Origin: Acidimicrobiia bacterium
GTDB taxonomy: Bacteria > Actinomycetota > Acidimicrobiia > Spongiisociales > ZC4RG35
Assembly: GCA_035292605.1 (NCBI GenBank)
Contig: DATDPT010000069.1
Span: forward strand, 56,599-120,598
Length of the DNA: 64,000 bases
Direction: 5' to 3'
In this document: positions 3,085 through 59,164 of the stretch, in pieces
Numbering within the stretch: position 1 is the stretch's first letter
How the letters are laid out: each line of letters opens with the position of its first letter
Notes under the pieces: model-generated
Seen by the model: the letters and a program-made list of their open reading frames with translations, nothing else
What the model was told of the DNA's origin: nothing
Database searches by the model: none
Position numbers and translations under genes: made by a program

Positions 3085-3351
3085 TCAGGATGCATTGACC
3101 CGCCGCAGGACGGCCAGGTAGTGGACCTTGTCGGTGATACCAGTAGCTGCGACGCGGCCTCCAGGGCTGATCCAGCCGGTGGTGAGCGGTGCGGCGGTGA
3201 TCTGGTCGATCTCCCATCCTTTTGCGGCGAGGCCGTTGATCTTGTCGATCACTTCTTCGCCGACGGGTGGCGTCGTCTCGCCGAGGCGGCCGCCGGCGGT
3301 GCTGGTGGCGCTGCCTTCCCACCACAAGTAGGTGTATTCGAAGGTGGTCAT
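3085..3351 (-). CDS. Hypothetical small protein
   Basis: Internal Met (MTTFEYTYLWW...) preceded by GGAGAAGAC, with a 4-nt overlap with the upstream T4CP stop. The long N-terminal extension in the ORF track is rejected. Confidence 0.45.
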   Translation of the reverse strand: MTTFEYTYLWWEGSATSTAGGRLGETTPPVGEEVIDKINGLAAKGWEIDQITAAPLTTGWISPGGRVAATGITDKVHYLAVLRRVNAS

Positions 3352-4715
3352 GTCTTCTCCTTTCTCTGTCGTGACGTGAGCGCAAACCGAGGAGGCTCGG
3401 GAGCCCTGGGGGCATCGAGCCAGCCGCCGAGGTGCCGCCACTGGGACTCTCGGTAGTAGGGGCGGAGCCGCACCTTGGCGGGTGGGGTGTTGTCGTGGAT
3501 GAGCACGGCGTGGCCAGCCGGGAGGGTGCGCAGCTCGCTGACGGGAGCGAGACGTTCCCACCTATGGGTCTCCGAGGTCGACGGCCCGTAGGAACCCTCA
3601 CTGACTGTCGTACTCACCGCCTGGCGCTCTCCGGCGAGATTGGAGAAGACCTCCAACAGCTCCGGGTCGGCCATCCCTGGGAGGAGCACACGGGCGACAT
3701 GGTTGTTGAGGATGGAGCGGGCGTTGTCCCGCCCCCACCGGCGGACAACCTGTCCGTAGTCCTGGAAGATGGTGACCAGCTGCACGTCCCGGGAGCGGAG
3801 GGTGGCGGCGTACTGGGGCAGCTTGGTCAGGGGTGCCGAGTTGGCGGCCTCGTCCAGCAGCAACAGCAGTGGCTTGTCGGCCCGGCGTCCCTGTTGCACG
3901 CGTTCCCCCACCCGGACCACAAGGGCGTCTATCAGCCCGACGAAAATCGGGCGGAGCTCGTCTTGGACGTCTTCGGTTCCGACGATGTAGAGGGTGTCGT
4001 CCGAGTCGAGGAGACTGTCGAAGTCGATGCCCGGCTGCTGGCGAGTGGACTGGACTCCAGCGCGGGTGGAGAAAACCTTGAGCGCTACCCGGGCGGTGGT
4101 GCAGAACGACAGCATGGTTTCCGCTGCGGTACCGACGGTGGCACCGCGCAAGGTGCGAGCCGCGATCTGGGCGTCATGGTCGTGCGCTCCGTCCAGTGTG
4201 GCGAGGGCCGTTCCGAAAGCGACTGTATGACCACCATCGAGAGAGGAGGTCCGAGAGCTCCGGGGGTCGGAGAGCCAGCCCATCATGTCCTCGATGCTTC
4301 GGCCACCGATTGCGGCGGCATGAAGCAGCGGACCCAAGAGGTCGGAGGCGGCCGACTGCCAAAAGTCGCCCTGGGTGACCGACATCAGGTCCGACAGCGA
4401 CACGAGATGGTGGGCGAGCCGGGTGGCCTTCTGAAAGTCAATGCATTGAGGCACCGGGTTCCAGCCGATGTGAACGGCACCGCCGACCGACCCGGTTGGG
4501 TCGTACACCCACGCCATCCGGTCGTGGCTCGACCGAACCGTGAGGGTGGTGTGGAGGATCTCGGAGGTGACCGAGCACACCACCGCCGGTCCGTCCCATT
4601 CCAGGACGTTTGGGATGGCGAAGGCCGAGGTCTTACCCGACCCGGGTGGACCGAACACCACAACCGATTCACGTTGCCGGGCGGCCACTAGTCGGCCTCC
4701 CATCCGGCCGATCAC
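3348..4715 (-). CDS. Type IV coupling protein (VirD4/TraG-like) ATPase domain
   Basis: Walker A VVFGPPGSGKTS, VYDPTGS (DPKGE-like), Walker B LLLLLDEAANS, IFQDYGQ. The GTG/ATG start is preceded by the strong RBS GGAGAGGAAGGA. The upstream part of the ORF-track frame is non-coding-like. Confidence 0.8.
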   Translation of the reverse strand: MIGRMGGRLVAARQRESVVVFGPPGSGKTSAFAIPNVLEWDGPAVVCSVTSEILHTTLTVRSSHDRMAWVYDPTGSVGGAVHIGWNPVPQCIDFQKATRLAHHLVSLSDLMSVTQGDFWQSAASDLLGPLLHAAAIGGRSIEDMMGWLSDPRSSRTSSLDGGHTVAFGTALATLDGAHDHDAQIAARTLRGATVGTAAETMLSFCTTARVALKVFSTRAGVQSTRQQPGIDFDSLLDSDDTLYIVGTEDVQDELRPIFVGLIDALVVRVGERVQQGRRADKPLLLLLDEAANSAPLTKLPQYAATLRSRDVQLVTIFQDYGQVVRRWGRDNARSILNNHVARVLLPGMADPELLEVFSNLAGERQAVSTTVSEGSYGPSTSETHRWERLAPVSELRTLPAGHAVLIHDNTPPAKVRLRPYYRESQWRHLGGWLDAPRAPEPPRFALTSRQRKEKT

Positions 4716-4740
4716 GATCCTTCCTCTCCGGGAGTGTGGT

Positions 4741-5163
4741 TCACGCCGCATCGGACGGCTCCTCCGCCTCGGCATGCGGCAGGTGCTGGTCGGACACGAG
4801 AAGGCCAGCCCTGCGCAGGTCGATCGTGGTGGCCCATTGCGCTCCCTCCTCGGCCAACCGCCCGAGCTTGAACAGCTTCCAAACCAACGGAGCGAATCCG
4901 GCCACCAGCACCACAGCAACGGCCCAGACCAGCCAGCTCGAGATGGACGGCTCCCAGGCACCACCCACGTCAGGGAAGGAGCGCAACAACGCGGCGACCC
5001 CCTCACCCCCGGTTCCGGGGAGTGAGGAACCGAGGATCGAACCGACCAGGATGCCGCTCCCCCACAACACGGCAACGCCTGCCAGACAGACGAGGGCCAG
5101 GGCGACGCCGGCTGTCTCGAGAGGAGATCGCCCGAGTCCGCCTCCATAGGGTCTACCGGTCAC
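4741..5163 (-). CDS. Membrane protein, probable N-terminal transmembrane module of the coupling protein (separate ORF)
   Basis: Different frame from the ATPase ORF. It has two hydrophobic helices (AGVALALVCLAGVAVLW..., WLVWAVAVVLVAGFAPLVW) and high GC3 in this frame. The GTG start is preceded by GGGAGG and the stop lies ~25 nt upstream of the ATPase-domain start. Confidence 0.5.
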   Translation of the reverse strand: MTGRPYGGGLGRSPLETAGVALALVCLAGVAVLWGSGILVGSILGSSLPGTGGEGVAALLRSFPDVGGAWEPSISSWLVWAVAVVLVAGFAPLVWKLFKLGRLAEEGAQWATTIDLRRAGLLVSDQHLPHAEAEEPSDAA

Positions 5164-6322
5164 GGCGGCCTCCCATGGCAGCGTTGGTGTCGATGAGTGG
5201 CCTCTCGATGTCGGTGACGATGTGCTCGACGACGGTGGACCGCCCACCGACCCTCCACAGCGCCTGGCCTGGAATGAGTCGCTGCACCACGGCGATCTCC
5301 TCCGGGGTAAGTCCGATCAGCTCACCGAGCGCGGCAGCCTGGTCGGGGGGTTGGCGGTACACGATGCGGGTTTCGGAGTCGGCCAGCAGCCCGTTGGCGA
5401 TGGCCCGGGTGTCCTCGTCGATGGAGCGGAGGTCGCCGAGGTGTTGGAGGACGGCGATGTAAGAGGCACCGTGCTCTCGGCTCATCTTGAAGGCGTACTT
5501 GGCCCACTCGGCAGTGGCGCGATCGGTGAGCAGCCTCCAGAACTCGTCCATCACCACCACCTTGGGTCGCAGACGGTCGGACCCCCACAGCCCGGTGATC
5601 CAGCCGGTGACGGCCACCATCAGCACTCGGAGGGTGTCGTCGTCGTGGCCGGAGAGGTCGACAAGGAGGTACGGGGTCGATGCGTCGACGGTCACCGTCG
5701 AGTCGCCGAACATCATCCGACCCGCGTGCGAAGAGGAGAGGGTGTGGAACCCGGCCACGAGATCGCGAACGTCACGGTCGGTGATAACCAGTGGGCTGGG
5801 CAGGTCCCCCGGGGAGGCGAGCCGTTCGGCGAGCTCCTCCAGGTTGCGCGCACCGTCGACGGCGGTTGCTGCGGTGACGGCGGCGGATTCGACCGGTGTG
5901 AGGGACCGGTTGAGAGCGGCCGAGGCCAGGGCGATGCCCATCCGTCCCCGGTCGCCGTGACTCAGCCCGTGGAATGGGTTGATCACTACTCGCCCCGGAC
6001 GGACCGGGTCCACCCCGAAGTAGGCGGCAAGGGGGAGACCTTCCCCCTTGGGATCGATGTGGCGGATCAGGTACCCGTGGGCGGCCATACGCACCGCCAG
6101 GCTCTTGACGAGAGTGGACTTACCTGAGCCCTTCGACCCGAGGACGAGCATCACCGGGTCGGTGACGATCCCCTGTTGGTAGGCCTGGAACGGGTCGAAG
6201 CAGAACGCCGACCCGGTATGGACGTCGAACCCGACCGGCACCCGGATCAGGCCTAGGGGACTGGGCGACTCCCAGGGGATGGCGCCCCGCAGATGGGCGG
6301 TGGTGGTGTTCACGCTGATCAT
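5153..6322 (-). CDS. VirB4/TrbE-like conjugative ATPase, C-terminal ATPase part
   Basis: Walker A LVLGSKGSGKSTL, IDPKGEG, Walker B VVVMDEFWRLL. An internal Met gives an ATGA overlap with the upstream gene. Confidence 0.8.
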   Translation of the reverse strand: MISVNTTTAHLRGAIPWESPSPLGLIRVPVGFDVHTGSAFCFDPFQAYQQGIVTDPVMLVLGSKGSGKSTLVKSLAVRMAAHGYLIRHIDPKGEGLPLAAYFGVDPVRPGRVVINPFHGLSHGDRGRMGIALASAALNRSLTPVESAAVTAATAVDGARNLEELAERLASPGDLPSPLVITDRDVRDLVAGFHTLSSSHAGRMMFGDSTVTVDASTPYLLVDLSGHDDDTLRVLMVAVTGWITGLWGSDRLRPKVVVMDEFWRLLTDRATAEWAKYAFKMSREHGASYIAVLQHLGDLRSIDEDTRAIANGLLADSETRIVYRQPPDQAAALGELIGLTPEEIAVVQRLIPGQALWRVGGRSTVVEHIVTDIERPLIDTNAAMGGRRDR

Positions 6323-7689
6323 CCGTCGACTCCTTTGTCGAGGCCCCGGCACAGGGGCAGCACCCAGGAGAGAGCGCGGAGCTGGCTTCCGCCGAGGACG
6401 GCGACCCGGCAGGAGCCGGCTACCGCGTTGGAGCGGACCGTCCCGCTGAGATCCTCAACCTCCTCCTCAGCCATCCCCGAGACTGCTACGGTTGCCAAAA
6501 GGCGGACCGGGACGTGTCCCTCGTTGAGTTCCCGTAGCTGACGGTCGAGCGAGTCCAGCTCTGCCTGCTTGCGATGGCGGCTCGCCTTGGCGGTCTCCAC
6601 CGCTGCCTGCGCCCGCCGGTAGGCCCAATCCAAGGAACGTTGGTGCGGCTCCGGATCGGCAGGGGCGATGAGGATGCTGACCACCCGGTTGCCTGCACCG
6701 GTGAGAAGCGGCGCCAGGAAACCGGAAGCCATCGGTCGCTGCGGCCACTGCCACAGCCACAGCAGCCGGTGCACGGTGTCGCCGACCGCCACGGTGTTCC
6801 ACTTCTCCTCTACACGGGATGGCTCAGGAAGATCACCAAGATCCGATGGCTGAGCCTCTCCGACACTCAGGACTTTGTGGAGGAGAGCGGTCCAATCGGC
6901 CGGAGCGAGAATCTCGGCCCGCAGCTGCTCGGGTGGCAGTTGGGCACCCAGGTGCTGCAGGGTGGAATGGAGGAGCCGCCCCACGGCTGCCTCCCCTCCT
7001 CTCCTCACCGTCCCCCTGGCGGCCGCGAGACCGAGCCGGACCACGAGGACGGTTTCTGTGTGGCGAACGTGAGTTGCGAGGTAGTAGGCCACTTCCTTCA
7101 AGACCTCGAGCCCGGGACCGTCGGCGGAGTCGGCGTCGCTAAGAAGGTGGTCGCCTCCGCCGTTCCTGCTTACGGTGAGAACTTGAAGACGGTCGACTGA
7201 TTCTGTGGGAATGGAGGTCACCACTCGAGCCCAGTCCTCGGCCGCCACCTCCCGGTCGGCTCTGCTCTGCAGCCAGGGGTCGCGGGTCGGGGACACCCTC
7301 ATGGCCGCCAGATACCTGCTGCGGTCCTTGACCACCCCCATCAACCCGTGCGGCAGCTCGCATCCGGTCACCTCCATCCCGGACAGCCACCTGGGTGGCG
7401 GACCACCATCCGAAGCGGTCCACTGTCTCCATCCCAGCCAGCCGCCCGCTAGATAGCGGAGGCCTAGGCCAACCCGGGTCCACGCCGGCGTCCCGGTCGG
7501 GTCGCGAAGGGTCAGCCCGCCAAGCACTGCAACGAGGACCAGAGCCGGGCCTCCCATCCCCGCCACCAGCATCAGGGCTGAGCACACCAGTCCGAGGACC
7601 GTCACCGAAGCCTGAGCCCATGAGTAGACGCGGAACGGCCCGCGTGGACCCCACTTGGGAAAGACGTGACCCCGCGGTTCCTCTGTCAT
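6319..7689 (-). CDS. VirB3/VirB4 N-terminal-like membrane-associated protein (SCO6880-like)
   Basis: 456 aa with N-terminal TM helices, directly upstream of and overlapping the VirB4-like ATPase part. The combined length of ~850 aa matches VirB4. Confidence 0.5.
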   Translation of the reverse strand: MTEEPRGHVFPKWGPRGPFRVYSWAQASVTVLGLVCSALMLVAGMGGPALVLVAVLGGLTLRDPTGTPAWTRVGLGLRYLAGGWLGWRQWTASDGGPPPRWLSGMEVTGCELPHGLMGVVKDRSRYLAAMRVSPTRDPWLQSRADREVAAEDWARVVTSIPTESVDRLQVLTVSRNGGGDHLLSDADSADGPGLEVLKEVAYYLATHVRHTETVLVVRLGLAAARGTVRRGGEAAVGRLLHSTLQHLGAQLPPEQLRAEILAPADWTALLHKVLSVGEAQPSDLGDLPEPSRVEEKWNTVAVGDTVHRLLWLWQWPQRPMASGFLAPLLTGAGNRVVSILIAPADPEPHQRSLDWAYRRAQAAVETAKASRHRKQAELDSLDRQLRELNEGHVPVRLLATVAVSGMAEEEVEDLSGTVRSNAVAGSCRVAVLGGSQLRALSWVLPLCRGLDKGVDG

Positions 7690-9627: not shown

Positions 9628-9968
9628 CAGCCACCTCCCCCGGGCCCGCACCTGATCGAGTCGAGATCGAGGTCGTGCACCTCGGCCTGGAACCCATGTC
9701 GACGATGGATCACCAACCGGATGGCGAACACAGCCGACAGGCCCGCCTGCCACGACGCGCCCCGCTGAGCCAGCAAGTAGTCGAGACTTCGGTTGACACA
9801 CACGAAGCGCACCCGCTGGGACCACCACCCCAACTCACCCACCATCAGGCCGCTGCGGGTTCGCCGTGCGGCCGCCACCTGCGCGAGCGTCCAATCCAGC
9901 TCCGTCAGACCCGCCCTCGACAGGGCATCTCGGGCATCCTCGAGAAGCGACTGGAGGGTTCGGGTCAC
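9627..9968 (-). CDS. Hypothetical protein
   Basis: 113-aa ORF with ATGA-type overlaps with both neighbours. Confidence 0.4.
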   Translation of the reverse strand: MTRTLQSLLEDARDALSRAGLTELDWTLAQVAAARRTRSGLMVGELGWWSQRVRFVCVNRSLDYLLAQRGASWQAGLSAVFAIRLVIHRRHGFQAEVHDLDLDSIRCGPGGGG

Positions 9969-11689: not shown

Positions 11690-12196
11690 TTAGCGGCGTG
11701 CGAACTTCTCCAGTGGCTCAATAATTGCGTCGGCCGTTGCGTTGAGCCAGCGACCGAACTCTCTCCACTCGAACCCCTCGTCCAGGAACTCGAACGGATT
11801 AGCGCCTCGGTACTCGCCTTGCCGTAAGTGAGAGATGTAGCTCCCGGACAGCAGCGCACCGGCCGCCGTCATGAGGTCGTGGGCGGGGTCCTCGATCTTC
11901 GCTCTGAGTTTGGGGCGGAGTCGGCCGATGAGGATCGGTTGATCCAGCCTTAGGCGTCGCTCTGTCTCGACCCACTCGTCTTGGGTCGAGTCGTCGGGTT
12001 TGCCCCCGCCCCCGAGGTTGCGTTGCCAGGCTCTTGCAAGGTCGGATGCGAGACGTCCGGCGTCCTGTGCCCAGCGGACAACATCTCGGGCTTCGTCTTG
12101 TCGACGGTGTCGCTTGCCTTGGCTGAGACGTCGCCATCCCATCCCGACTGCGACGAGTGCGATGCCGATGCTCAAGTACGGGAGTACGTTGCTCAT
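11690..12196 (-). CDS. Membrane-anchored hypothetical protein (third gene of the HEPN operon)
   Basis: N-terminal TM helix (LPYLSIGIALVAVGMGW); ATGA overlap with the upstream gene. Confidence 0.5.
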   Translation of the reverse strand: MSNVLPYLSIGIALVAVGMGWRRLSQGKRHRRQDEARDVVRWAQDAGRLASDLARAWQRNLGGGGKPDDSTQDEWVETERRLRLDQPILIGRLRPKLRAKIEDPAHDLMTAAGALLSGSYISHLRQGEYRGANPFEFLDEGFEWREFGRWLNATADAIIEPLEKFARR

Positions 12197-13254
12197 GACT
12201 CGCTGTGGAAGCGCTCAAGCTGTTCGTCTCGTTCTCGGAGGCCGAGCGCAACCGCAAAGGGGTAGTTCATGTAGGTGGTTGCCCATTCGTGGCCCCGGTA
12301 GTAGTCCAGGAGCCGGAGGATGTCGCTGACGGCTTGGAGGGTCTCGTCGACGAATTCGGTGGTCGTCTCGATCCCGGTGTGCGTGACAAGGTTTCGGTTC
12401 GCGACCGCTTTCTTCACAACTGCGAGTGTCTCGTTGGGAGGCGGCATTACGTTCCCGGATGGGAGCGGGTTCTTCACGGGGAGTTTCGGCAGGTACTCGC
12501 GGAGCATCCTCTCGATCGGTGGAGACGGCGCATTCATCGCCAGCCACTCGGCGTCGGGTACCAGATCGACGACGAAGCTTTTGAAGCCGACTTCGAGGGC
12601 GACAACCGCGACGATTAGCGCGCCGCGGCGATTTGACGCCGAGAGTTCCGAGGCCTCGGCGAGTAACTCGAAGCCCAAGGGCTCCGAGGATTCGGAGTCG
12701 ACCATCGGCTGGACATACCGCTTGAAGTAGTCATCGTCGAATCGGACATGCGCCGTGGCCCAAGTCCGCCCCGAACCATGCGACGGGATGGTGTGCCAGT
12801 TCTCGCCGTCGAACGAGAATTGGAACCCGCGGGTAGAGAAGCCTCTGCGGCTGGGTGGGTAGGTATCCGTTCGCCAGCGGTAGATGTTTGCAACCGCACG
12901 GGCTGCGGTCGACATCTCGTCTCTCAGCATCTCGGCATACGAACGGAAGTATTCCGGCAGCACACTGGGAGACGGGATTCGGTTGTCGAGATACTCACCG
13001 GGCTCGACTCGCGCGTCGAGGGTTTCATAGGGCTCCGCGTCGTTCGGAAGCACGTCGGCAGCTAGGTTCTTGAATACCTGGAGGACTCGGTCATTCGATT
13101 CGAACTCTGTTGTGGCGATGAGTACGAGGGTGTCTTTGGTGTCCTCCGATGCGCTTGCGTGAACGGCGATGTTTCGGGGCCCGCCGAATTCGATTGTGGC
13201 CTCGCCTTCCCCGGTAGGGGTGTTGTGCACGTTCAGGTGATACCGGGCGAACAT
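12193..13254 (-). CDS. HEPN-motif protein (putative RNase/abortive-infection component)
   Basis: C-terminal AVANRNLVTHTG matches the Rx4H HEPN signature, in a helical C-terminal region. Confidence 0.55.
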   Translation of the reverse strand: MFARYHLNVHNTPTGEGEATIEFGGPRNIAVHASASEDTKDTLVLIATTEFESNDRVLQVFKNLAADVLPNDAEPYETLDARVEPGEYLDNRIPSPSVLPEYFRSYAEMLRDEMSTAARAVANIYRWRTDTYPPSRRGFSTRGFQFSFDGENWHTIPSHGSGRTWATAHVRFDDDYFKRYVQPMVDSESSEPLGFELLAEASELSASNRRGALIVAVVALEVGFKSFVVDLVPDAEWLAMNAPSPPIERMLREYLPKLPVKNPLPSGNVMPPPNETLAVVKKAVANRNLVTHTGIETTTEFVDETLQAVSDILRLLDYYRGHEWATTYMNYPFAVALGLRERDEQLERFHSES

Positions 13255-13256
13255 GG

Positions 13257-14063
13257 CTATTCGGCGGCAGGCATAAGGGGGCTTAGGAGGTCCGCGATTT
13301 GGGCCTCGGTCTCACTGGAGGCCGCCTGCCACGACTCGATGTTCCGACCTAGGCGCTCGACGATGACGTCGCCCGAGAGTTGAAGAAGGGCGAGCGCTGC
13401 GCCGAGTCGGCGGGCCCTGTCTTTCGGTTGGTTTGGTCCCCCGAGGTCGAAGTGCTCCTCGGTGTTGCTGCGCACGACGGTGCCGAGCGTGACGGCGGAG
13501 CCGTGAGCGGGGTCGCTCTCCCAGCGGAAGAGACCGTGGAGGTCTTCTCGCCCGAGGTCTTCCCACATCTTCTTGGCGTTGGGGAGACCACCGACCTTTC
13601 GGCCCAACTTCGCTTCTTGGTCGGCGATGAGCTTCTCTTGGTTGGCGAGTTGTTCCCACTCGTGCGGCAGTACCTGCCGACCAGTGCTCCCCTGGTATTC
13701 GTACTTGGATCGCGTCTGTTGGATGCCGTCCTTCCAGAAGATCACGGCCTGCTCGAATTGTCGCTCGGCGTCATCAGGTGCGTCGAGCCAAAGGATGATG
13801 CGGGTCAGCTCCGCAAGCCCCCGGACGAGCTGGCCCGCCTGCTCGGCGTAGAACGGCAGCGCCACAAGGAGAGCGACGCCGTAAACCTGCCTGACTACGA
13901 AGACGGCCTGTCGTGCGAGGAGCTGCTGGGTCGGTGTGTCGGCCGCGATCTTCTCGTTGGCCAACAGCTCGGCAAGGTGGTCGGCGAGACCCTTCAGTGC
14001 ATCGCAAGCGGCAACGATCCTCTCGTCTTCCGTCTTGCTGATCGATGCTCCCTCGCTCTTCAC
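13257..14063 (-). CDS. Hypothetical protein (first gene of the HEPN operon)
   Basis: 268 aa, tightly packed with the downstream gene; no motif. Confidence 0.5.
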   Translation of the reverse strand: MKSEGASISKTEDERIVAACDALKGLADHLAELLANEKIAADTPTQQLLARQAVFVVRQVYGVALLVALPFYAEQAGQLVRGLAELTRIILWLDAPDDAERQFEQAVIFWKDGIQQTRSKYEYQGSTGRQVLPHEWEQLANQEKLIADQEAKLGRKVGGLPNAKKMWEDLGREDLHGLFRWESDPAHGSAVTLGTVVRSNTEEHFDLGGPNQPKDRARRLGAALALLQLSGDVIVERLGRNIESWQAASSETEAQIADLLSPLMPAAE

Positions 14064-14372: not shown

Positions 14373-15491
14373 ATGCTGATGGCGTCACCCGCATACCGAG
14401 TGACCGAAGACCAAGTACCTTCGGAGACCAAAGGTGGCTTGCGAGTGAGCTCTATGAAATGGTCTTTGACGAAAGAAGGGGAAGTCGTCCCAATTGCAGT
14501 CCGGATCGATCTTCCGTTCTGCCTGTACCTGGAGAACGGTACGTATGTAGTCGACGTTGATGGCATGCCAATCCAGATCGACACCGAGAAGATCTGGCGA
14601 AACTCGGAAGGGTCCTCCGATGATGACGCTGTTGCTGATCAGCAAACCTTCTTTACCGAGGCACACCTGATCGGTGGGCCCATAGGCGGCGACCCCGCGC
14701 AAGCGGCACATCTCGTTGCCAAGAACATGGAGTTCGCTGGGGACCGGACCGGCTATTTCCGTTACACACGGATGGCCATCGGCCTGACCTATCCGGCCGA
14801 CACTAAACCGCATGAACGGGGTGCTCGTATCGCACAAATGGCCGTGGATTCGGCGAACACGCTCATCGACAGCTACCGCTATGCAAGCGGTCGGGCGTAC
14901 GTTCCCCGCGTGCGTGTGGCAGACCTTCGGTTTATGGAGATCCAATATCCCCTGACGGGTGAGGTTGAGTTTGTTGGATTGTTCACCAAAGGGCTCAGGG
15001 TTGCCGTCGTTAACGATTCAAAGAGCGTCCACGCCGAGGTTCGTAGCATGGCCGAGGCTGGGGAAACCGTGCCGATTCATGCGGATCTCCTCCTTGCCGC
15101 AATCAGGGCACTGTGGGAGACCGACTTCCGCTTGGCAGCGATTGAGGCGTTCGCTGCCCTAGAAGTCTTCGTCGACAACCGGCTCTACACACTGCTATTC
15201 GACTCGGGTGCCATGAATGAGACCGAGTTCGATGACTTCATATACGAGGAAGGTCAAAACCTCGCTAAGAAAATGAAGAAGCCTCTTCGCCGAGCAGGCG
15301 TGCCGAGCCCAGCCGACAACACAGCACTATGGGAGGCATGGATAGCTGCCAACAAACTCCGGAACAGGGTCGTACACACGGGTTATCAACTGTCAGAAGA
15401 AGAAGCAAGGTCGATCGTTAGAACTGTCCAGCAGCTACTGGAGGAGATGGGTGACGAAGGTATGCACCTGGCCGAGGAGATGCCCGCGTAG
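14373..15491 (+). CDS. HEPN-motif protein, divergent paralogue-like partner
   Basis: C-terminal ANKLRNRVVHTGY is the same RNxVxHTG motif as the 12193..13254 product. Confidence 0.55.
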   Translation: MLMASPAYRVTEDQVPSETKGGLRVSSMKWSLTKEGEVVPIAVRIDLPFCLYLENGTYVVDVDGMPIQIDTEKIWRNSEGSSDDDAVADQQTFFTEAHLIGGPIGGDPAQAAHLVAKNMEFAGDRTGYFRYTRMAIGLTYPADTKPHERGARIAQMAVDSANTLIDSYRYASGRAYVPRVRVADLRFMEIQYPLTGEVEFVGLFTKGLRVAVVNDSKSVHAEVRSMAEAGETVPIHADLLLAAIRALWETDFRLAAIEAFAALEVFVDNRLYTLLFDSGAMNETEFDDFIYEEGQNLAKKMKKPLRRAGVPSPADNTALWEAWIAANKLRNRVVHTGYQLSEEEARSIVRTVQQLLEEMGDEGMHLAEEMPA

Positions 15492-16054
15492 TCAGACCGC
15501 AACGGCAGGCGTTCTCTCCACGTTCGGTCACCGTTGGGTCACAAGCCCGGGGAGCGCCTGAACCCACCACTCATCCAGAAAACGGACCTAGACCAAGTCG
15601 AGGAAACCTCAGGCTCTGAGGTTGCCACCGCTGCAAGCGCGTGCGCTGGACCCACCGGGGAGATCGCCTTCTTCAACGTCGGATCCGAAGTCACCGTCAC
15701 ATCCAACTAGCGCCGATCAACTGGTCTGCTTCGAAACCGCTCACATCTGAAACCGCTCGAGAACGCAGCACTTAGTGTGTTGGCATGGCCTCCTCGCTCG
15801 ACATTGATGACACCGCCGAGTCTTACCCGGCGCCAAGAGCAGGGAGGCCCCCCGCTCTTCATGGCATCACTGATGAATAGCCACCAGGTGGCTCGAAACG
15901 GGCTGGTTTGGGATCTCGTGTCAACAGGCGCAATGGCTCGCTTCCTGTCGGCCGGCGCGTGGTGTGGCTGGCCTCCTGGGAAAAGACACCGGGAAACCGC
16001 TCTCTCCCTTTGGCCGAGAGGATCGGAGGCTCGATTCATGACGCCCTTAGGCTG

Positions 16055-17107
16055 CTAGGTGTCGGTAAGAGCGACAGCCTGCAGAGAACTAACGGACGGA
16101 CCGTCACCGCCTATGCGTTCCGCCGCGTCTTGAACTGCCCGCACAATGTTGTGGTATCCGGTGCAGCCACAGAGGTTGCCTGCTAGGCCCTCCCGGATTT
16201 CGGCTTCGCTGGGAGACGGGTTGTCCATCAGAAGACCAACGGCTTGTAGGATCATGCCAGGAGTGCAGAAACCGCATTGGACCGCATGCATTCGCCAGAA
16301 GCTGTCTTGGACCGGGTGGAAACCTCCGGAGGGCGCTAGGCCCTCGATTGTTGTGATCACGCAGTCCTGGGCCTGTACCGTCAACATCATGCACGCCTTG
16401 ACGGGGTGGTCGTCCAGGAGCACCGTGCAGGCGCCGCAGTAACCGCTTTCGCAGCCGATGTGTGATCCTGTCAGGCCGAGGTCTTCCCTCAGGAAGTGGA
16501 TGAGGAGCAGGCGAGCCTCGACCTCGCGTTCGACCCGTTGCCCGTTGACTGTCATGGAGACCACATGCCTCCGCGAGGGGTCCTGTCCAGTGTGAGGAGT
16601 CCTGGGCGGTCCGAGAATCGCCAGCACCTCTTGGCCCAATGGAGTGATCTCCCATCCATTGACACGCCCGTATCGGGTCTTCGAAACGACACCGACATCC
16701 AAAAGCTGCCTACCCGCTCGGCTAACTGCGCTCTCGTCGTTGAGCCCAAGCCTTCGACCGACCTCGGTGTTGGAGATCCCAGGTCCGTGCGCCACCACGG
16801 ACAGGAAGCGATGCTTGTAGGTGTTCGGCTCCAACCGTGCAGCCAAGGACGTCCCTCGCATGCGGTCCTCGTAGGCACGGACCATTTCGGCAAGTGCCCG
16901 CGCATGAGAGGACGCGACCCCGCTGGACCGCGCCGCAATGGATGCGAGGCGATCGCTAAGTTGCTCAGGAGGATTGAACGAGCCGAGGAGAACGGCGATG
17001 AGAGCCTCTGCGAGAGCACGGAGCCGCCCAGCTCCAATATCGAGGTCTTCCTCGCTCATGTCTAAGAGGCGATGCAGTCGTTCTAGGGCAGCGTCCACGT
17101 CCTTCAT
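16055..17107 (-). CDS. Fusion protein: winged-HTH (MarR-like) domain plus CoxS/XdhC-type [2Fe-2S]-binding domain
   Basis: The C-terminal ~150 aa carry both CoxS cysteine clusters (GCESGYCGACTV and CGFCTPG...CGCTGY). The N-terminal ~190 aa contain a winged-helix segment (NTEVGRRLGLNDESAVSRAGRQLLDVGVV). Confidence 0.7.
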   Translation of the reverse strand: MKDVDAALERLHRLLDMSEEDLDIGAGRLRALAEALIAVLLGSFNPPEQLSDRLASIAARSSGVASSHARALAEMVRAYEDRMRGTSLAARLEPNTYKHRFLSVVAHGPGISNTEVGRRLGLNDESAVSRAGRQLLDVGVVSKTRYGRVNGWEITPLGQEVLAILGPPRTPHTGQDPSRRHVVSMTVNGQRVEREVEARLLLIHFLREDLGLTGSHIGCESGYCGACTVLLDDHPVKACMMLTVQAQDCVITTIEGLAPSGGFHPVQDSFWRMHAVQCGFCTPGMILQAVGLLMDNPSPSEAEIREGLAGNLCGCTGYHNIVRAVQDAAERIGGDGPSVSSLQAVALTDT

Positions 17108-17155
17108 TGTTTGTCACCCGGCTCGTCAGGTCCACTCTAGGAAAGTGTCAAGTAA

Positions 17156-18538
17156 ATGACAAGTGATTTCCGTCAAGATCCTGGCGACGCGTTCTGTCAA
17201 CTGTGGGACCACCATCAGCGTTCCTGGACCATCGGCAAGATCGAAGAGTGGACGGCGTCACCGAGATTCAAGGAAATGGAGGACGAACTTGCGAACGCCA
17301 TCATCACGCAGGGGTCCATCCCAGATGCAGCGATCAGAGAGATTGGTGAGGATGCATACCATGCATTCCTGCTCGCCGCTGCAATCAATCGCGCCCTGTA
17401 CGCGATCCATCCCCGGTATAGGCGCCGAGACATTTCTACACGTTTGGACTGGCTGAGAGACCGATACCATCAATCCGGGCGCCTAAACTCAGACGAGGTG
17501 GAAGGTGCCCTGCTCTTCCGTCTTGTTCAAACGGATCGCGTCGGGCCCGGCAGAGCAGATTGGATCGCAGACTGGTTCACGAACCTCCGGCGCCTCTCGG
17601 ACGAGCAGTGGGAGGATCTCGACCTCGTCTCACTTCTAATCGACCGCGACTTCGTCAGGGACGTGAGAGAGCGCAATAGGAAGTTGCGCGTCGGATGTCT
17701 CGCCTTGGTCGAAGACCTTGACGCTTTCGATATCACCGTGCGCGACACATTCAACTTAGCAACCGAACAGAAAGCGCTCAGATATCGAATCGGGCTCAAG
17801 GCCGGAGCCATCACCAAGGACCTCATTATGAAGGCAGTTCATGCTCTCGATGCCGCATTAGTCGACATCGCTCTCCTACCAGAGTCCACTCTCGATGATC
17901 GAGTGTGCCAATTGTGGATCGACGTAGTCCGCACCCACAGACCAGATCCGGGCAACCCGCTTCGCTGGATCGTTGCCGGTACCGGTCACATGGCTGATGG
18001 TCTCCGGCGCCGCAATACAGCAGTTGTCATTCATCGGCAAAGTGGCATAGAGCTGGCCAGACAGGACAAGACCGCGCGCTACACCATTCCACAGGGCACC
18101 GCCACTAAGTGGGGTATGGACACGCTGACTGGCGCAGACGAGTACTGGGAGGACATCGAACCAGGGACCACCGTCGTGGGCCTGGAGTCAGAAGCCGGCC
18201 GAATCGCCGTCGTGATTTGCGAGAGCTTGAGTCGCCCTGTACCAGAAACCGACAGGCTTCATCGACTGGGCGTAACGCACATTCTCGTACCCGTCCTCGA
18301 TCGTGAGCTCGGCGATGATCGTTGGGAGGTCCACTATTCCCGCGAAAGAGTTCGTGACATAGGCTGCTCGATCGTCATTGCCAACAGTCTCGCCATAGCT
18401 CGGCGCCGCCAAGCGCGACTCATCGAAGGCGCCCCACCACCTGGGTCCATCGTATGCAGCATGTCGCGAACCAGCACCTCGAGCTACCAGTTGAAGACCG
18501 CTGAGGGATGTCTCGACGTCCAGATCCACGAGGTGTAG
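17156..18538 (+). CDS. Hypothetical protein
   Basis: 460-aa ORF in a moderately lower-GC stretch; no recognisable motif. Confidence 0.4.
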   Translation: MTSDFRQDPGDAFCQLWDHHQRSWTIGKIEEWTASPRFKEMEDELANAIITQGSIPDAAIREIGEDAYHAFLLAAAINRALYAIHPRYRRRDISTRLDWLRDRYHQSGRLNSDEVEGALLFRLVQTDRVGPGRADWIADWFTNLRRLSDEQWEDLDLVSLLIDRDFVRDVRERNRKLRVGCLALVEDLDAFDITVRDTFNLATEQKALRYRIGLKAGAITKDLIMKAVHALDAALVDIALLPESTLDDRVCQLWIDVVRTHRPDPGNPLRWIVAGTGHMADGLRRRNTAVVIHRQSGIELARQDKTARYTIPQGTATKWGMDTLTGADEYWEDIEPGTTVVGLESEAGRIAVVICESLSRPVPETDRLHRLGVTHILVPVLDRELGDDRWEVHYSRERVRDIGCSIVIANSLAIARRRQARLIEGAPPPGSIVCSMSRTSTSSYQLKTAEGCLDVQIHEV

Positions 18539-33044: not shown

Positions 33045-34476
33045 GGCTCTACGCGATGAAGTGTGGGGCGTTGTGAGCTTGGGAGACTGATTCCGAAATC
33101 CATGGACGCGGGCAAGGGCCCCGTCATTCTGCGGATTGATCGTCTGCAGAAGGAGAGACCCTTGTCCGTGATTCAAGGTAGCCGTGGGGCCACCGTGCTG
33201 GTTGGTATGCCCGGTTTCGTGGTCGGCGTCCAGGAGCTGGTCGAAGGGGAACTGTGGCTGTATGTGGAGACGACCGCGGATGTGGTCGGCTGTCCTGGCT
33301 GTGAGTCCAGAGCGACAGGTCATGGTCGGGCCCGGACACTGGTGCGGGACCTTCCCATCTCGGGGACGCCGACCGTGCTCTTGTGGTCTAAGCGGCGCTG
33401 GCGTTGCTCCGATCCTGACTGTGAGGTGAACACCTGGTCGGAGACGTCTCCGCAGATCGCTCCGAGGGCGGTGTTGACCGAACGGGCGAGGAGACGGCTG
33501 GCGGACATGGTCAATGTCGACGGTGACTCGATCGCTGCGGCGGCGGCCGAGTTGGGGGTTGGCTGGCATACCGCCAACCAGGCGGTGGCAGATCACACCG
33601 ACCCGCATGTCGAAGATCCTGACCGGCTAGTGGGTGTGGAAGCGATTGGGGTGGACGAGAAACGGTTCCTCAACGCCACCCCTGAGCGTCGGACCGTCTA
33701 TACGACTCAGATCGTCGACTTGGACCGTCACCGGCTCCTCGATGTGATCGAAGGCCGCTCCCAGGACGTGTTGGGCAGCTGGCTCGAGGCCCGGAGGGTC
33801 GACTGGTGCGCCAGGATCCGGTTGGCCAGTTTGGACCCGGCTGCCGGTTACCGCCGAGCCTTCGAAGAGCATCTTCCCAATGCCACCCTGGTAGTGGATC
33901 ATTTTCATGCGGTGAGGCTGGCCAACCGGGCCATCGATGATGTCCGCCGCCGTGTCCAACAACAGACATTCGGTCACCGAGGCAGAAAGGCCGACCCGCT
34001 GTATCGAGCACGCAGGGTCCTCCTCACCGCCGATGAGCGTCTCAGCGAGGAACGGTTCCAATGGATGGCAGGCCTGCTCGAGATCGGAGATCCCGACGGG
34101 GAGGTCAGCGCCGCCTGGGTCGCCAAGGAGCTACTCCGAGACGTCTATCAAGCAGTGGACCAGGCCCACGCCCGCCGGCGGATGATCGCCTTCTACATCT
34201 ACTGCGGCGACGCCGACATCCCCGAACTGGCTCGCCTCGCCCGCACCGTCAGCCGCTGGTCAGAGCAGATCTTCGCCTACCACTCCACCGGACGGGCGTC
34301 CAACGGACGAGTCGAGAACACCCACATGCTCGCCGAGAAGATCCGCCGCAACGCCCACGGATTCCGAAACCACGACCACTACCGCCGGCGCCTAATCGGA
34401 CGACTCGGCGTCAAATGGCATACTCAGACCACCGCACGAATACGAGGCCACCAACCACGGTTCATCGCGTAGAGCC
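33045..34476 (+). mobile_element. ISL3-family insertion sequence inserted into the IS256 transposase gene
   Basis: Terminal inverted repeats GGCTCTACGCGATGAA(GTGTGG) at 33045 and reverse-complemented at 34476. Perfect 8-bp direct repeats CAATTACC at 33037-33044 and 34477-34484. Confidence 0.8.
33063..34472 (+). CDS. ISL3-family transposase
   Basis: Typical ISL3 blocks: VGCPGCESRA zinc-ribbon-like N-terminus, VEAIGVDEKRF, VVDHFHAVRLANRAIDDVRRR, MAEKIRRNAHGFRN. The true start may be an internal codon. Confidence 0.85.
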   Translation: MGRCELGRLIPKSMDAGKGPVILRIDRLQKERPLSVIQGSRGATVLVGMPGFVVGVQELVEGELWLYVETTADVVGCPGCESRATGHGRARTLVRDLPISGTPTVLLWSKRRWRCSDPDCEVNTWSETSPQIAPRAVLTERARRRLADMVNVDGDSIAAAAAELGVGWHTANQAVADHTDPHVEDPDRLVGVEAIGVDEKRFLNATPERRTVYTTQIVDLDRHRLLDVIEGRSQDVLGSWLEARRVDWCARIRLASLDPAAGYRRAFEEHLPNATLVVDHFHAVRLANRAIDDVRRRVQQQTFGHRGRKADPLYRARRVLLTADERLSEERFQWMAGLLEIGDPDGEVSAAWVAKELLRDVYQAVDQAHARRRMIAFYIYCGDADIPELARLARTVSRWSEQIFAYHSTGRASNGRVENTHMLAEKIRRNAHGFRNHDHYRRRLIGRLGVKWHTQTTARIRGHQPRFIA

Positions 34477-36755: not shown

Positions 36756-37973
36756 ATGACGGGTACCCCCAACGATGTGGCGACGCCGATCGTCGATATC
36801 AGGCCCCAAACTCCGATTGCACAATTGGACCGCTCGCGGTTCGGAGCCGAGGACTCGTTCAAGCCTGAGACGGTCGCGCCCGTCGTAGGCATGTCCCTGA
36901 CCTTCATCCGCAAGGTCGTCGGCCATCGCGGTTGGCTTTCCGGTGAGGACGTCCTTGCCCTGCTTGATCAGGACGCCTTCCATGAAACGTTCGTACCGCG
37001 AAGCAAGATTCTTGACTATCTCAAGGGATGCAACCAAGGCGACTCCGAATCGGTTGATGAGGTTCCAAACCCGGAGTCATGGGATCTGAGGCTCGGCAAC
37101 GCCCTCGACCTTGTGAGGGAGGTCACGGCGTCGTCTGTCAATTGCGTGGTGACCTCGACTCCCTACTGGGGGCTTCGTATCTATGAGGACACACAGGTGG
37201 TGGCATGGGCCGACGGCGAAGTCTGCGCCTACGGACACGAGCAGACCCCGGAAGGCTTTGCTCGGCACACGACCGAGACCCTATTGGCACTATCCCGGAT
37301 ATTGACCGATGACGGGTCGATCTGGTGGAACGTTATGGACTCATTCAATACGCGCACTCAGATCCGTGAGTCCGCAGCGGAGGCACTGCGTGCAATGCAA
37401 GGCATGGACTCCAGAAAATGGGGGGAGTACACGGCAAGACGGTACTCCGCTGGGCATTCGTACTTGAAGGACGGCGAGCAATGCCTGATCCCTCAGATGA
37501 TCGCCGAGCGAGCAAGCCGAGCGGGTCTCTACGTCAAGACGGTAATCACCTGGGCAAAGCGCTCCAGCATGCCCGAACCCCAGAATTCGCGGGTGTCGCG
37601 CAACTTGGAGTACGTGCTGCATATCACGAAGCAGCGCACTCCAAAGCTCGCGCGCCAGCCATACCACGACGCCGACCCCGAATTCGGTGGACGAAATAAC
37701 GGGTGGGAGTCTGAAAAGCTGTCTGACGTCTGGGTCTTGAGCACGTCATCGGGCGGCAATGGTCACGGAGCCCAATTCCCGACAGCACTTCCCGGCCGGT
37801 GTATAGCGCTATCGACCGAGCCAGGTGACGTTGTGTTGGACCCCTTCGTCGGCACGGGGACGTCAGGGATCGCAGCATTGCATCACGGCTGCTCATTCAT
37901 TGGGTTCGACACGTCCCAAACGTACTTGGCGATCGCCAAGGAGAAGCTCGGCAGCGTCAACGAAGGTCATTAG
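36756..37973 (+). CDS. Beta-class DNA amino-methyltransferase (N4-cytosine or N6-adenine)
   Basis: Motif IV variant VVTSTPYW before motif I DPFVGTGTSG (the beta permutation). RBS GGAAGGAG 8 nt upstream of the ATG. Confidence 0.8.
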   Translation: MTGTPNDVATPIVDIRPQTPIAQLDRSRFGAEDSFKPETVAPVVGMSLTFIRKVVGHRGWLSGEDVLALLDQDAFHETFVPRSKILDYLKGCNQGDSESVDEVPNPESWDLRLGNALDLVREVTASSVNCVVTSTPYWGLRIYEDTQVVAWADGEVCAYGHEQTPEGFARHTTETLLALSRILTDDGSIWWNVMDSFNTRTQIRESAAEALRAMQGMDSRKWGEYTARRYSAGHSYLKDGEQCLIPQMIAERASRAGLYVKTVITWAKRSSMPEPQNSRVSRNLEYVLHITKQRTPKLARQPYHDADPEFGGRNNGWESEKLSDVWVLSTSSGGNGHGAQFPTALPGRCIALSTEPGDVVLDPFVGTGTSGIAALHHGCSFIGFDTSQTYLAIAKEKLGSVNEGH

Positions 37974-39210
37974 GTTCCCCGGAGAGGAACGCGCTCACGA
38001 CATCGCCGATCCTGGTGGGTGACGTCGACCCGAGCACCACGCCAAGTTGCTGGTGCATCCCGACGGCGACACTGGTCTCGGGAACCATGTCGGAAGGACC
38101 GACGACGAACGACCACACTTCGTTAGCGAGCCCGGAGAGAGCATCGAGCGCGTAACTTGACGACTGATGGAAGCCATACCTTCCGACGTATTGGCTGTTT
38201 GTTGACCACTTACATTCGAACAACAGGGCGCGGTGCCCCTTGTCAATGAGCATGATGTCGACACCGATCGCTCCGCCAACCCCCGCAATCCCACGGACAG
38301 CGTCGTAGTACGCAGCTCGTGGTAGCCCGTATGCGCCGCGCGAGGCTCCGGCTTCGAACCACAGGTCATAGCGAGTGCCGCTCGGTCCAATCGCTTCTAT
38401 CTGCGCGCCGGGTCGAGTGCCCGATAACGGACGTCGCCACGTCACAACGAAACGGTGGTTGCGGAGTGCTCGGATCACCATCCCGTAGGACCCCAGGTGA
38501 AACAGCCGCCAGCCGATATCGGGGTCGGGGGTGATGAGTTCAAATGCAATGAACTCCGAGTCTCGTTCCGCTCGAACAGCAAGCTCGGCAGCCGCACCAA
38601 CGGATGCCCACGGATACCCGGAGGTCTTGAGCGACAACAAGCTGAGGCGGTCGGGGCGTGTCGCATCGATATCGGCGCTCCAGGGAGCGAGCGCATCGTC
38701 TACCACATCCAGACGTGCGCGGATCCGGAAAGAGCCCGACGCCCATAGCGACTCGACGTTGTTGACCGCTGCGCGCATTTGCCCGGCCAGCCACGCGAGC
38801 GTTCCTATCGCGACTTCGTCCATCACCCTGCGGCGGGTTCTCAACCTGAATTCCCGCGGTGGCCATCCGGACCTGGACCTTCGATGGGTTTCACGCCAGT
38901 TGATCGATCCTGCAGGGACTCGTGCGACATTGGGGTCCGAGACACTTGACGACGGCAGATACTCCTCCCAGTCAGATGCGGTCCGAGGCCATGTCGCAGA
39001 TATCGGATCGATGATGCCCAGGAGCACTCGCAACGCTCGACGGTGAATGTCGGTCGCAGTCCAGTCGAGCGCGTCCGGAGCCGAAACGTATGCCAAGGAC
39101 TCATAGATCGAGCCTTCACCAGACCATCCGCGAAGGACCTCGTCGATGCCGACGCGAGGGATCGAAAGCGTCAGCCGAGGGTCTGACGTTGGATGACTGT
39201 CCACTCCCAT
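37957..39210 (-). CDS. McrC-like PD-(D/E)xK nuclease subunit
   Basis: IGVDIMLIDKGHRALLFECKW is a D...ExK nuclease core. Sits directly downstream of and overlapping the McrB-like gene. Confidence 0.55.
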   Translation of the reverse strand: MGVDSHPTSDPRLTLSIPRVGIDEVLRGWSGEGSIYESLAYVSAPDALDWTATDIHRRALRVLLGIIDPISATWPRTASDWEEYLPSSSVSDPNVARVPAGSINWRETHRRSRSGWPPREFRLRTRRRVMDEVAIGTLAWLAGQMRAAVNNVESLWASGSFRIRARLDVVDDALAPWSADIDATRPDRLSLLSLKTSGYPWASVGAAAELAVRAERDSEFIAFELITPDPDIGWRLFHLGSYGMVIRALRNHRFVVTWRRPLSGTRPGAQIEAIGPSGTRYDLWFEAGASRGAYGLPRAAYYDAVRGIAGVGGAIGVDIMLIDKGHRALLFECKWSTNSQYVGRYGFHQSSSYALDALSGLANEVWSFVVGPSDMVPETSVAVGMHQQLGVVLGSTSPTRIGDVVSAFLSGEPNDLR

Positions 39211-44700: not shown

Positions 44701-45069
44701 CTCAACACGGACCCGCTCATCACCGAAGGCATACAGCAGCGACACCGACTTAGGAGCCGAGAAGGTGTGGTCGAAGGCAGCCACCTTTCCGTGGCTGGCA
44801 AACCTACGCACCATGGAGTCACCCCCCGGAGTCTGGTGACCCATCAGCTTGGTGAATACCTCCGAGTCCACCTCAGATCCGGACTCCAACCCGAGTCGTT
44901 CCATGCCGCCCCCCATCCACCGAGAGGGTGATTCGTGGGAGGCGTAGTAGTCCACCTGGGACGGCTTCCGCTCTCCCCGCAAGACCGGAACGTCCTCACC
45001 GACCGAGTGGCGGAGTTGTTGGGTGTAGTACTCCGCCTGGGAGGCCACCAGCTTGCCGATCGACTGCAT
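41752..45069 (-). CDS. traA: MobF-family conjugative relaxase/helicase (TrwC/TraA-like)
   Basis: N-terminal relaxase domain (start MQSIGKLVASQAEYYTQQ, HTHVVVINRV His motif) plus C-terminal RecD-like helicase (Walker A GPGGSGKTYS). Confidence 0.9.
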   Translation of the reverse strand: MQSIGKLVASQAEYYTQQLRHSVGEDVPVLRGERKPSQVDYYASHESPSRWMGGGMERLGLESGSEVDSEVFTKLMGHQTPGGDSMVRRFASHGKVAAFDHTFSAPKSVSLLYAFGDERVRVEVTAAHQAAVADAMSYMEEHCSHSRLATKHRDAEGRWKVNTRTAESEGYVAAAFDHFTSRANDPQVHTHVVVINRVWADEGWRAIDAKRAYAHAKAGGSVYQAVLRDVLTQRLGVSWQPVVNGVADIAGFSPELVRHFSTRRTEIVEAVKRYLAEVGGEAHRRVWQSFTLETRQPKSHPTGEAEVTREMKDYGITSDVVAHWQRRAMDAPEDVAAVVRAAVGETRPSRRPEEEQVKAAARSLVEWVSDRQAVFTERDLVAHVSSIFPDGANQVELLATTGELLRAAQESGDVLTILPHAETGLVLPEGVVLSTEELDIAVGQGPGWLQQGGTVRFRALPGEARYTTRLHLEREQRVLDSVKVSSPLAPDREALERAIRIRELVEGQAEAVRHLGELDGRVVAVVGPGGSGKTYSIGAYADAVAAAGCPVIGVATSAAAARQLGEDLGERWTGTIAMLRHQLDASPDPLRPGTLVVVDEASMVSTADLAWLVENVEACHGKLVLVGDPKQLPSVDSGGVFHRIVASGEQVVDELVRVNQRQHLDFDRHALDRFRAGEIEQAVHEYAEAGRLHLGRDEYATKAAMVDAWWTDVQNHGLDGVRMLASRRDEVQMLNQLARVRMRDAAEITGPSIVNRWRIEFQAGDRIVVRDNWYAHADLRNGQTGTVLSVHPDPGSVSFRRDLDGEVIELPKRYLDRNVDHAYAQTIHTSQGQTFQSTHVYADTGVRAEHGYTALSRARGETHLWINDAPGPLGECTYIHGDPLAEDRVASLARQLSQSVIEPLAHDQGLPVTTATDQQLIEWRDELEGIIRRSPIGTDVTDELTAVEAAIDEANEIAERLRTSGARAQVRALVGRRDDLDRHVVTREAWLEQNAGVLHRYAVVADEMQHRINARVAAYEIHPPEEVIEAIGPPPTMDVLRRQQWSSAVARYAEARIKLGPAADVGDPAFVASAQWRDAVSAYDLTNVSGIDLRGPVLHGAMLHR

Positions 45070-45163
45070 GCTCTCAACCCCCCGCAACCTGTGGTTGCAA
45101 CTGTGTACGGTCAAACCGGTCGGTGGGCGAGAGGCGGGTGACTGTCATGGACGGCGACCGGGG

Positions 45164-59146: not shown

Positions 59147-59164
59147 GCTCAGGTGCCAGTTGCC

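Follow-up and report, generated by a model that had tools for sequence, protein, structure and literature searches.

How does a winged-helix regulator come to carry a subunit of a molybdoenzyme, and does that subunit serve the regulator? The question is raised by one 1053-nt open reading frame (ORF) in a stretch of Acidimicrobiia DNA (positions 56,599 to 120,598 of contig DATDPT010000069.1, assembly GCA_035292605.1). This stretch of 64,000 nt was analyzed at its full length and is called the window below; coordinates refer to it unless another contig is named, and features are collected in Table 1. The 350-aa product joins an N-terminal, MarR-like winged-helix regulator to a complete iron-sulfur (Fe-S) module of the kind that forms CoxS/CutS small subunits. 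Our preferred reading, which is a tentative one, is that the protein is an autoregulating repressor of the neighboring CN-hydrolase-like gene that has gained an Fe-S input domain responding to redox state or cluster occupancy. In favor of this reading are a continuous ORF in four assemblies, a confidently modeled winged helix, a conserved partner gene and DNA repeat, and an Fe-S module that is complete and keeps all eight cluster ligands without a CoxL or CoxM homolog in the 64-kb window or the 9 kb beyond its high end. A further-reaching proposal is that the protein is a working factor in which the two-cluster module of the xanthine-oxidoreductase family acts as a redox or iron sensor, tying the CN-hydrolase-like gene to the redox state of the host through an operator built on ACTTGNCA; we hold this to be doubtful.

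A single gene in four assemblies

The 350-aa product was also called by the JGI, ENA, and Logan gene predictions. The NCBI entry from a third-party annotation (TPA) of a metagenome-assembled genome (MAG) has 334 aa and begins at Met17 (HLF43046.1; [quoted passage not shown]). Because the first 16 residues align with members of the regulator family described below, the longer form is favored. All 1053 nt recur unchanged in three further contigs: a JGI contig of 71 kb (3300002124; L009), an ENA contig of 85 kb assembled by MEGAHIT (ERZ27254861; L010), and a Logan contig (SRR3989295; L011).

An assembly or sequencing artifact, either a chimera or a homopolymer indel, would have merged two separate genes at this locus. 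One feature lends itself to such an error: a CCCC run (16577-16580) lies just upstream of the junction between the two halves, and a 1-nt change there would end the upstream frame in a TGA overlapping ATG185. Against an artifact stands the identity of the gene in the NCBI, JGI, ENA, and Logan versions, which come from different pipelines but may share reads. Since no difference was found among the four, an assembler chimera or indel is unlikely, and we judge an artifact overall to be very improbable. The two halves are also alike in composition, GC content, and GC content at third codon positions (GC3), a likeness that could be set against a chimera but is uninformative on that point. Consensus scans place a promoter-like site and a terminator-like hairpin where they would bracket the fused gene as a single unit, and we count this toward the repressor reading. 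Outside the gene, the ENA contig differs from the window by one adjacent CG-to-GT dinucleotide change (9641-9642) and is otherwise identical over 21 kb; the change reflects either strain variation or a consensus difference.

The N-terminal half as a MarR-like regulator

The first-pass annotation had described the N-terminal part as a MarR/PadR-like winged helix and expected a domain search to return a helix-turn-helix family beside Fer2 and Fer2_2. Of these two labels, MarR-like fits better. As for the domain search, both ferredoxin domains were found (see below), but residues 1 to 181 searched alone gave no Pfam family even at E ≤ 10 and thus no MarR or MarR_2 match. An AlphaFold2 run on the N-terminal half with an 11-sequence alignment (mean predicted local distance difference test [pLDDT] score, 88.5) gave four helices over residues 2 to 92 followed by a winged helix, made up of helices 97-107, 113-120, and 125-137, strands 141-146 and 149-154, and helix 156-165. 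Modeling the whole protein from its single sequence gave a poor result (mean pLDDT, 48) that was used for the winged-helix topology only. Foldseek searches of the PDB had MarR, SlyA, MexR, PcaV, OhrR, and ArsR/SmtB structures as top matches (probability 1.00, E from 3e-3) over about 75 to 100 aligned residues, and the top 50 were mostly MarR-family or ArsR/SmtB-type regulators. A DNA-binding fold is thus what the model gives for the N-terminal region, as the earlier annotation supposed. In relatives of the protein, the corresponding segment does match Pfam MarR, MarR_2, and HTH_24 (e.g., MarR_2 at 42.3 bits in P0126). The modeled fold resembles that of MarR proteins, not PadR ones. No cysteine is present in residues 1 to 181.

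With structurally known MarR repressors (PcaV, 4fht; SlyA, 1lj9; MexR, 1lnw; MarR, 1jgs), the fused protein shares the winged-helix fold and a divergent target arrangement. It differs from them in lacking a Pfam MarR match, in its 95-residue N-terminal helical region, and in a candidate operator that is a tandem direct repeat, not a palindrome.

An exhaustive HMMER profile search of 1.84 billion representatives retrieved 546 relatives of the N-terminal module, 245 of them at E ≤ 1e-10; word-index searches were insensitive (1 protein, then 10). About half of the relatives listed are standalone proteins of ~200 aa, and some relatives from Spirillospora and Actinomadura are named [quoted passage not shown] by NCBI. 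The closest standalone protein (P0121; 199 aa) is 45% identical over residues 72 to 162 (E 1.1e-13) and stops just past the wing helix. Together with P0276 from Actinomadura gamaensis and P0275 from Spirillospora sp., it represents standalone regulators that are 30 to 45% identical to the fused protein, with which they share the helical region, the winged helix, the CN-hydrolase-like neighbor, and the tandem repeat in the control region. These regulators end 10 to 20 residues past the wing helix, whereas the fused protein continues with a 170-residue Fe-S module.

C-terminal additions are frequent in the family: 84 of the 150 best representative relatives have at least 280 aa, and 25 of these 84 carry ROK regulators, with Replic_Relax, TetR_N, and DUF2188 among the other additions. 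Gain of a C-terminal domain is therefore plausible and in character. In the ROK regulators P0123 to P0126, the N-terminal module likewise precedes further domains, but the added part is a complete ROK repressor with its own winged helix and sugar-kinase-like domain, not an Fe-S module. By sequence comparison, the N-terminal module (residues 1 to 175) is a member of an uncharacterized, widespread actinobacterial family that would consist of a helical bundle and a MarR-like winged helix.

Three minor observations concern the same family. The order of N-terminal module, second winged helix, and ROK domain recurs in many ROK-family regulators of the representative library (relatives P0123 to P0140), and a literature search found no description of this architecture with two winged helices. 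The idea that long relatives are CN-hydrolase fusions was rejected, as blastp found none and the longest ones checked are ROK fusions. PADLOC matched the winged helix to CARF3 (E 8.5e-4); its matches were weak, and a defense-system assignment of the fused gene was not adopted.

A conserved partner gene and tandem repeat

The divergent neighbor of the fused gene encodes a CN-hydrolase-like protein whose sequence has itself diverged from typical CN hydrolases. A four-sequence profile of such proteins matches the glutaminase domain of M. tuberculosis NAD+ synthetase (3dla_A; E 1.4e-4) in an alignment that spans the P-E, D-K, and C-E motifs; these motifs are invariant in the family and are represented here by E243, K305, and C355. 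The homolog at locus L004 matches PF00795.

A CN-hydrolase-like homolog adjoins the regulator in six of six loci, namely, the window and five others (L001; L003, from Actinomadura gamaensis; L004/L005; L015, from Spirillospora; and L016). The neighbors in the other loci are 28 to 30% identical to the window protein (E 1e-14 to 1e-46). At L001 the two genes converge; at the other five loci they diverge. A search for related loci with family alignments returned none in genome contigs and one weak locus in metagenome contigs. This conserved neighborhood suggests that the divergent CN-hydrolase-like gene has the N-terminal module as its cognate regulator.

At every regulator/CN-hydrolase locus examined, we found a tandem direct repeat of the form ACTTGNCA-N3-ACTTGNCA. 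Its consensus, read on the sense strand of the regulator in a 12-nt register, is (C)ACTTGACA-N3-(C)ACTTGRCA; L001 and L004 have two copies each. In the window, the repeat reads ACTTGTCATTTACTTGACA and is unique in the 64 kb even with up to two mismatches tolerated (0.23 expected from shuffles). It overlaps the CN-hydrolase-like gene at its ATG and the fused-gene promoter at its predicted -35 element, and no inverted repeat was found in the control region. Because the conserved repeat, the regulator, and the target are all intact in the window, the regulator half is very likely functional. We infer that the fused protein binds the repeat.

Whatever the role of the Fe-S module, these comparisons define an uncharacterized, widespread actinobacterial unit of a regulator, a CN-hydrolase-like enzyme, and a tandem-repeat candidate operator, and the candidate binding site is precise and testable. 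Literature searches found no description of the unit. At L001 (4122-4697 and 4782-4798), we also note a standalone regulator divergent from an extracytoplasmic function (ECF) sigma factor gene. The regulator ORF as annotated has a repeat copy within its first 30 nt, and its start codon may therefore be miscalled.

A complete CoxS-type module without partner genes nearby

The C-terminal half proved to be the complete two-cluster module that had been described from the sequence, one that normally occurs only within molybdenum enzymes. Pfam Fer2 (residues 186 to 234; E 1.8e-6) and Fer2_2 (residues 253 to 326; E 1.9e-30) both match, and the eight cysteines are intact, as C219-x4-C224-x2-C227-x11-C239 for the first cluster and C278-x2-C281-x31-C313-x-C315 for the second. 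Residues 180 to 334 align end to end with chain residues ~3 to 160 of solved small subunits (4zoh_C, E 4.7e-57; CutS 1ffu_A, E 8.2e-57; CoxS 1n5w_A, E 2.7e-55), to which the module is 55 to 60% identical. No NCBIfam equivalog cutoff was reached, the best being glyceraldDH_gamma at 218.5 bits against a cutoff of 290.

The absence of molybdenum- and flavin-subunit genes nearby was likewise upheld. A tblastn search of the window, with proteins containing CoxL and CoxM segments as queries, found no homolog of either, and neither gene is among the gene calls in the 9 kb past its high end. By its residues, the C-terminal half belongs to the CoxS/CutS family; by its context it does not, as it stands behind a DNA-binding part and has no adjacent L or M gene.

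In an alignment with 119 homologs, 58 columns show conservation of 90% or more, and the module departs at 8 of them (T221S, G233D, S238A, A243T, G248D, G275A, L276V, and R314G). This is the tied highest number among the 120 sequences, most of which have 0 to 2 departures. Mean identity of the fused module to the homologs is 60%, versus 67% among the homologs themselves. Two Gly-to-Asp changes (G233D and G248D) and R314G distinguish it from the solved CoxS/CutS small subunits. R314 lies between two cluster ligands in the C-R-C-T-G-Y motif, where 118 of the 119 homologs have Arg; we take it to be the equivalent of Arg149 of human xanthine dehydrogenase, a disease-mutation site, although a literature search did not retrieve this correspondence. 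The elevated number of changes and the lower identity are compatible with changed constraints and with loss of the usual subunit contacts.

The same data bear on an alternative that we take seriously without considering it probable, namely, a young and selectively neutral fusion. A coxS-type gene would have landed downstream of the regulator in mobile cargo, and one change would have merged the ORFs. The regulator would then work as its standalone relatives do, and the Fe-S module would ride along as a passenger that is inert or that continues to be the electron-transfer subunit of a molybdoenzyme encoded elsewhere. The 55 to 64% identity of the CoxS part to ordinary small subunits fits this account, as do its place in the low-GC cargo of an apparent integrative conjugative element and the setting of its closest CoxS relatives, whose genes stand in the usual coxS-coxL arrangement, in one case an apparently decaying one next to integrase fragments. 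Less easily accommodated is the retention of the full module and its eight ligands despite the elevated change at conserved columns.

The decaying arrangement is found at L012 (6001-7570). There, P0003, which is 60% identical to the CoxS module, is preceded by ORFs for integrase fragments and followed by two short ORFs with CoxL pieces (Ald_Xan_dh_C, 164 aa; MoCoBD_1, 107 aa). This looks like a decaying cox operon beside mobile-element debris.

Anatomy of the junction

The linker between the halves (regulator tail LGPPRTPHTGQ) keeps the P-R-x-P-H tail motif of the standalone relatives, in which the motif stands a few residues ahead of the stop codon, and CoxS homology starts at residues 180 to 183. 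Thus, both parents are complete and are joined end to start through about 15 residues. An arrangement of this kind fits a stop-loss fusion of recent date between genes that lay side by side. Small changes would undo it: the genes would be split if codon 178 went from TCG to TAG or if the CCCC run changed by 1 nt, in which case the other frame (ORF 16552..17037) ends in the TGA that overlaps ATG185. The end-to-start join of complete parents and the nearby TGA count toward a neutral fusion.

The DNA of the junction (gac ccc tcg cgg agg cat GTG gtc tcc ATG aca) holds a GGAGG ahead of the GTG of V182 (16562-16564) and the ATG of M185 (16553-16555). It is a possible, if weak, candidate for a relic or internal ribosome-binding site of a formerly separate coxS gene, and the GGAGG-N3-GTG arrangement is a further point for a neutral origin. 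Some caution is due on this point, as GGAGG occurs three times in the fused gene, with a chance of ~6% that one falls at the junction, and the spacers of 3 or 12 nt are atypical of the window, whose genes with a GGAGG use 4 to 6 nt. Two other results argue against the neutral account. No coxS was found downstream of the regulator among the relatives' loci examined, so the juxtaposition itself is lineage specific, and the 560-nt downstream stretch holds no CoxL or CoxM remnant.

The same motif admits an account with two products, in which an internal start at GTG182 or ATG185 yields, in addition to the full-length protein or in its place, a free CoxS-like ferredoxin of 166 to 169 aa as the functional Fe-S form. 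The GGAGG precedes GTG182 by 3 nt, and small-subunit homology sets in at the right place: with residue 3 of 8uem_C aligned to residue 183, translation from GTG182 would yield a small subunit of normal length. Weighing against internal initiation, one spacer is shorter and the other longer than those of the GGAGG genes in the window, and with no stop codon between the halves, ribosomes translating the regulator must run into the Fe-S module. We regard separate production of the ferredoxin as improbable.

Proposed mechanism and relation to known regulators

Returning to the repressor with a gained input domain, we propose the following sequence of events. The fusion would have arisen by stop-codon loss or a small indel between two adjacent genes. 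The fused protein would bind the tandem repeat and, because this overlaps its own -35 element and the start codon of the CN-hydrolase-like gene, would repress both genes. The CoxS-type module, no longer housed in a molybdoenzyme, would act as a tethered input domain whose cluster oxidation state or occupancy alters dimer geometry or oligomeric state and hence operator occupancy. The logic would resemble that of SoxR or RsrR, made from a different Fe-S module.

SoxR belongs to the MerR family, and RsrR, IscR, and NsrR belong to the Rrf2 family; both groups are [2Fe-2S] transcription factors, with a single cluster held by three or four ligand residues from the regulator's own fold. What the fused protein would share with them is only the proposed dependence of regulator activity on [2Fe-2S] state. 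It has two clusters in a separate, enzyme-derived module of 150 residues. It matches neither MerR nor Rrf2, its DNA-binding fold is a different one, and its candidate operator consists of a direct repeat.

Should the Fe-S module prove to modulate DNA binding, the few Fe-S transcription factors would gain a new sensor module. Were the sensor proposal true, this would be the first regulator based on the two-cluster module of the xanthine-oxidoreductase family, whose clusters have different potentials and evolved for intramolecular electron transfer, and an enzyme subunit would have been recruited to signaling by a single mutation on a mobile element. In the neutral case, the locus offers a clean snapshot of a newborn gene fusion.

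Distribution of the fusion

The first-pass annotation had asked for the phylogenetic spread of the fusion, and no instance beyond the identical copies turned up in the collections searched. A set of 5.8 billion proteins contained 3575 CoxS-type matches; among the best 120 of these, which were examined, only the fused protein itself covers more than about half of the query. The 50%-identity representative library may hide fused relatives under CoxS-type representatives, as apparently happens to the fused protein. Fer2 and Fer2_2 are not among the 25 most frequent Pfam families in the 84 long relatives of the N-terminal module. In 72,556 plasmid records, 1474 have a CoxS-type match and none covers 80% of the query, while the N-terminal module has no match at all. 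A plasmid match with 79% coverage (H9, Caballeronia) was rejected as a tblastn extension into noncoding DNA upstream of an ordinary S-M-L operon. The exact 48-mer at the junction is absent from GTDB representative genomes, and literature searches found neither a CoxS-type or Fer2_2 module in a regulator nor a MarR-ferredoxin fusion. The combination of a winged helix with a complete CoxS-type module thus appears to be unprecedented. The fusion is one strain-level lineage, seen as a singleton whose sequence is identical in all assemblies, as a young neutral fusion would be.

Several results weigh against the idea of a repressor with an acquired Fe-S input. None of the 150 best relatives of the N-terminal module by blastp carries a CoxS domain, and with one lineage and 100% identical copies there is no comparative evidence that selection keeps the fusion. 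The Fe-S module does not appear to be clearly beyond the range of ordinary small subunits: P0104 is equally deviant (8 columns) and P0115 also has R314G, so the column test does not separate new from relaxed constraints. At the junction, the retained GGAGG-N3-GTG resembles a former coxS translation start, an indication that the event is young or that the Fe-S part is translated on its own. Finally, literature searches found no sensing role for a CoxS-type module.

One further protein (P0051; 301 aa, on a Logan contig of 1641 bp) has a CoxS-type module with an odd N-terminal extension, whose first ~70 residues, judged by eye, resemble a HicB-family antitoxin. From this example, capture of CoxS-type genes into fusions seems to occur now and then.

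Genomic setting

Positions 1 to 50500 of the window look like an integrative conjugative element or similar mobile region, as judged from predicted conjugation, pilus, and integration genes (Table 1); no tRNA gene is present in this region. The fused gene sits in a cargo stretch of lower GC content (56 to 62%, versus 65 to 70% in the flanks).

Table 1. Features of the fused gene, its control region, and the surrounding mobile region
Feature	Position	Strand	Details
Fused ORF	16055..17107	minus	ATG start, 350 aa
Four-helix N-terminal region	16823..17107	minus	Residues 1-95; putative dimerization/accessory bundle; AlphaFold2 pLDDT 76-91; aligns with family
MarR-like winged helix-turn-helix	16610..16822	minus	Residues 96-166; AlphaFold2 pLDDT 90-96; MarR-family matches by Foldseek
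Linker	16565..16609	minus	Residues 167-181; LGPPRTPHTGQDPSRRH; low pLDDT
GGAGG at junction	16568..16572	minus	3 nt before GTG (V182), 12 nt before ATG (M185)
Complete CoxS/CutS-type small-subunit module	16109..16564	minus	Residues 182-333; all 8 cluster cysteines
Promoter-like site of fused gene	17134..17162	minus	TTGTCA, 17-nt spacer, TAGAGT; consensus scan only
Tandem direct repeat, candidate operator	17146..17164	minus	ACTTGTCA-TTT-ACTTGACA; zero mismatches
Terminator-like hairpin with T-rich tail	15991..16008	minus	47 nt past stop codon; consensus scan only
Divergent CN-hydrolase-like gene	17156..18538	plus	460 aa; N-terminal helical region and nitrilase-superfamily domain
Type IV coupling protein	3348-5147		
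TraG P-loop ATPase	5153-6352		
EccE-like protein	6319-7689		
VanY			In mobile region
Tad-type pilus cluster	~19-27 kb		With T2SSE, T2SSF, and RcpC
ISL3 transposase	33063-34472		
N6/N4 DNA methylase	36756-37973		
417-aa protein	37957-39210		No family
AAA_5 ATPase	39171-40796		
TrwC relaxase	41752-45114		
Tyrosine integrase	49233-50474		

The low-GC stretch also encodes two proteins that match no Pfam family (12193-13254, minus strand; 14373-15491, plus strand) and have a common C-terminal motif, A-x-N/K-(L)-R-N-x-V-x-H-T-G (R-x4-H, HEPN-like). The 372-aa member of the pair weakly matches the HEPN part of PADLOC Csx1/Csm6 (E 5e-4), and a weak DUF5677 protein is encoded between the two (13257-14063). 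The HEPN-like pair and the DUF5677 protein may form a small defense or abortive-infection cargo block adjoining the fused gene.

Farther along, the methylase, the 417-aa protein, and the AAA_5 ATPase have a McrBC-like arrangement, with the ISL3 transposase nearby. Beyond the mobile region come, in order, a 1806-aa protein of the SACS/NOV_C type (51052-56472), a glycosyltransferase (57068-59146), an MbnB/TglH/ChrH-family protein (~59165-60070), and an asparagine-synthase-like protein (59995-61638). This region (51052-61638), which is also found in L007/L008, may be a peptide-modification cluster.

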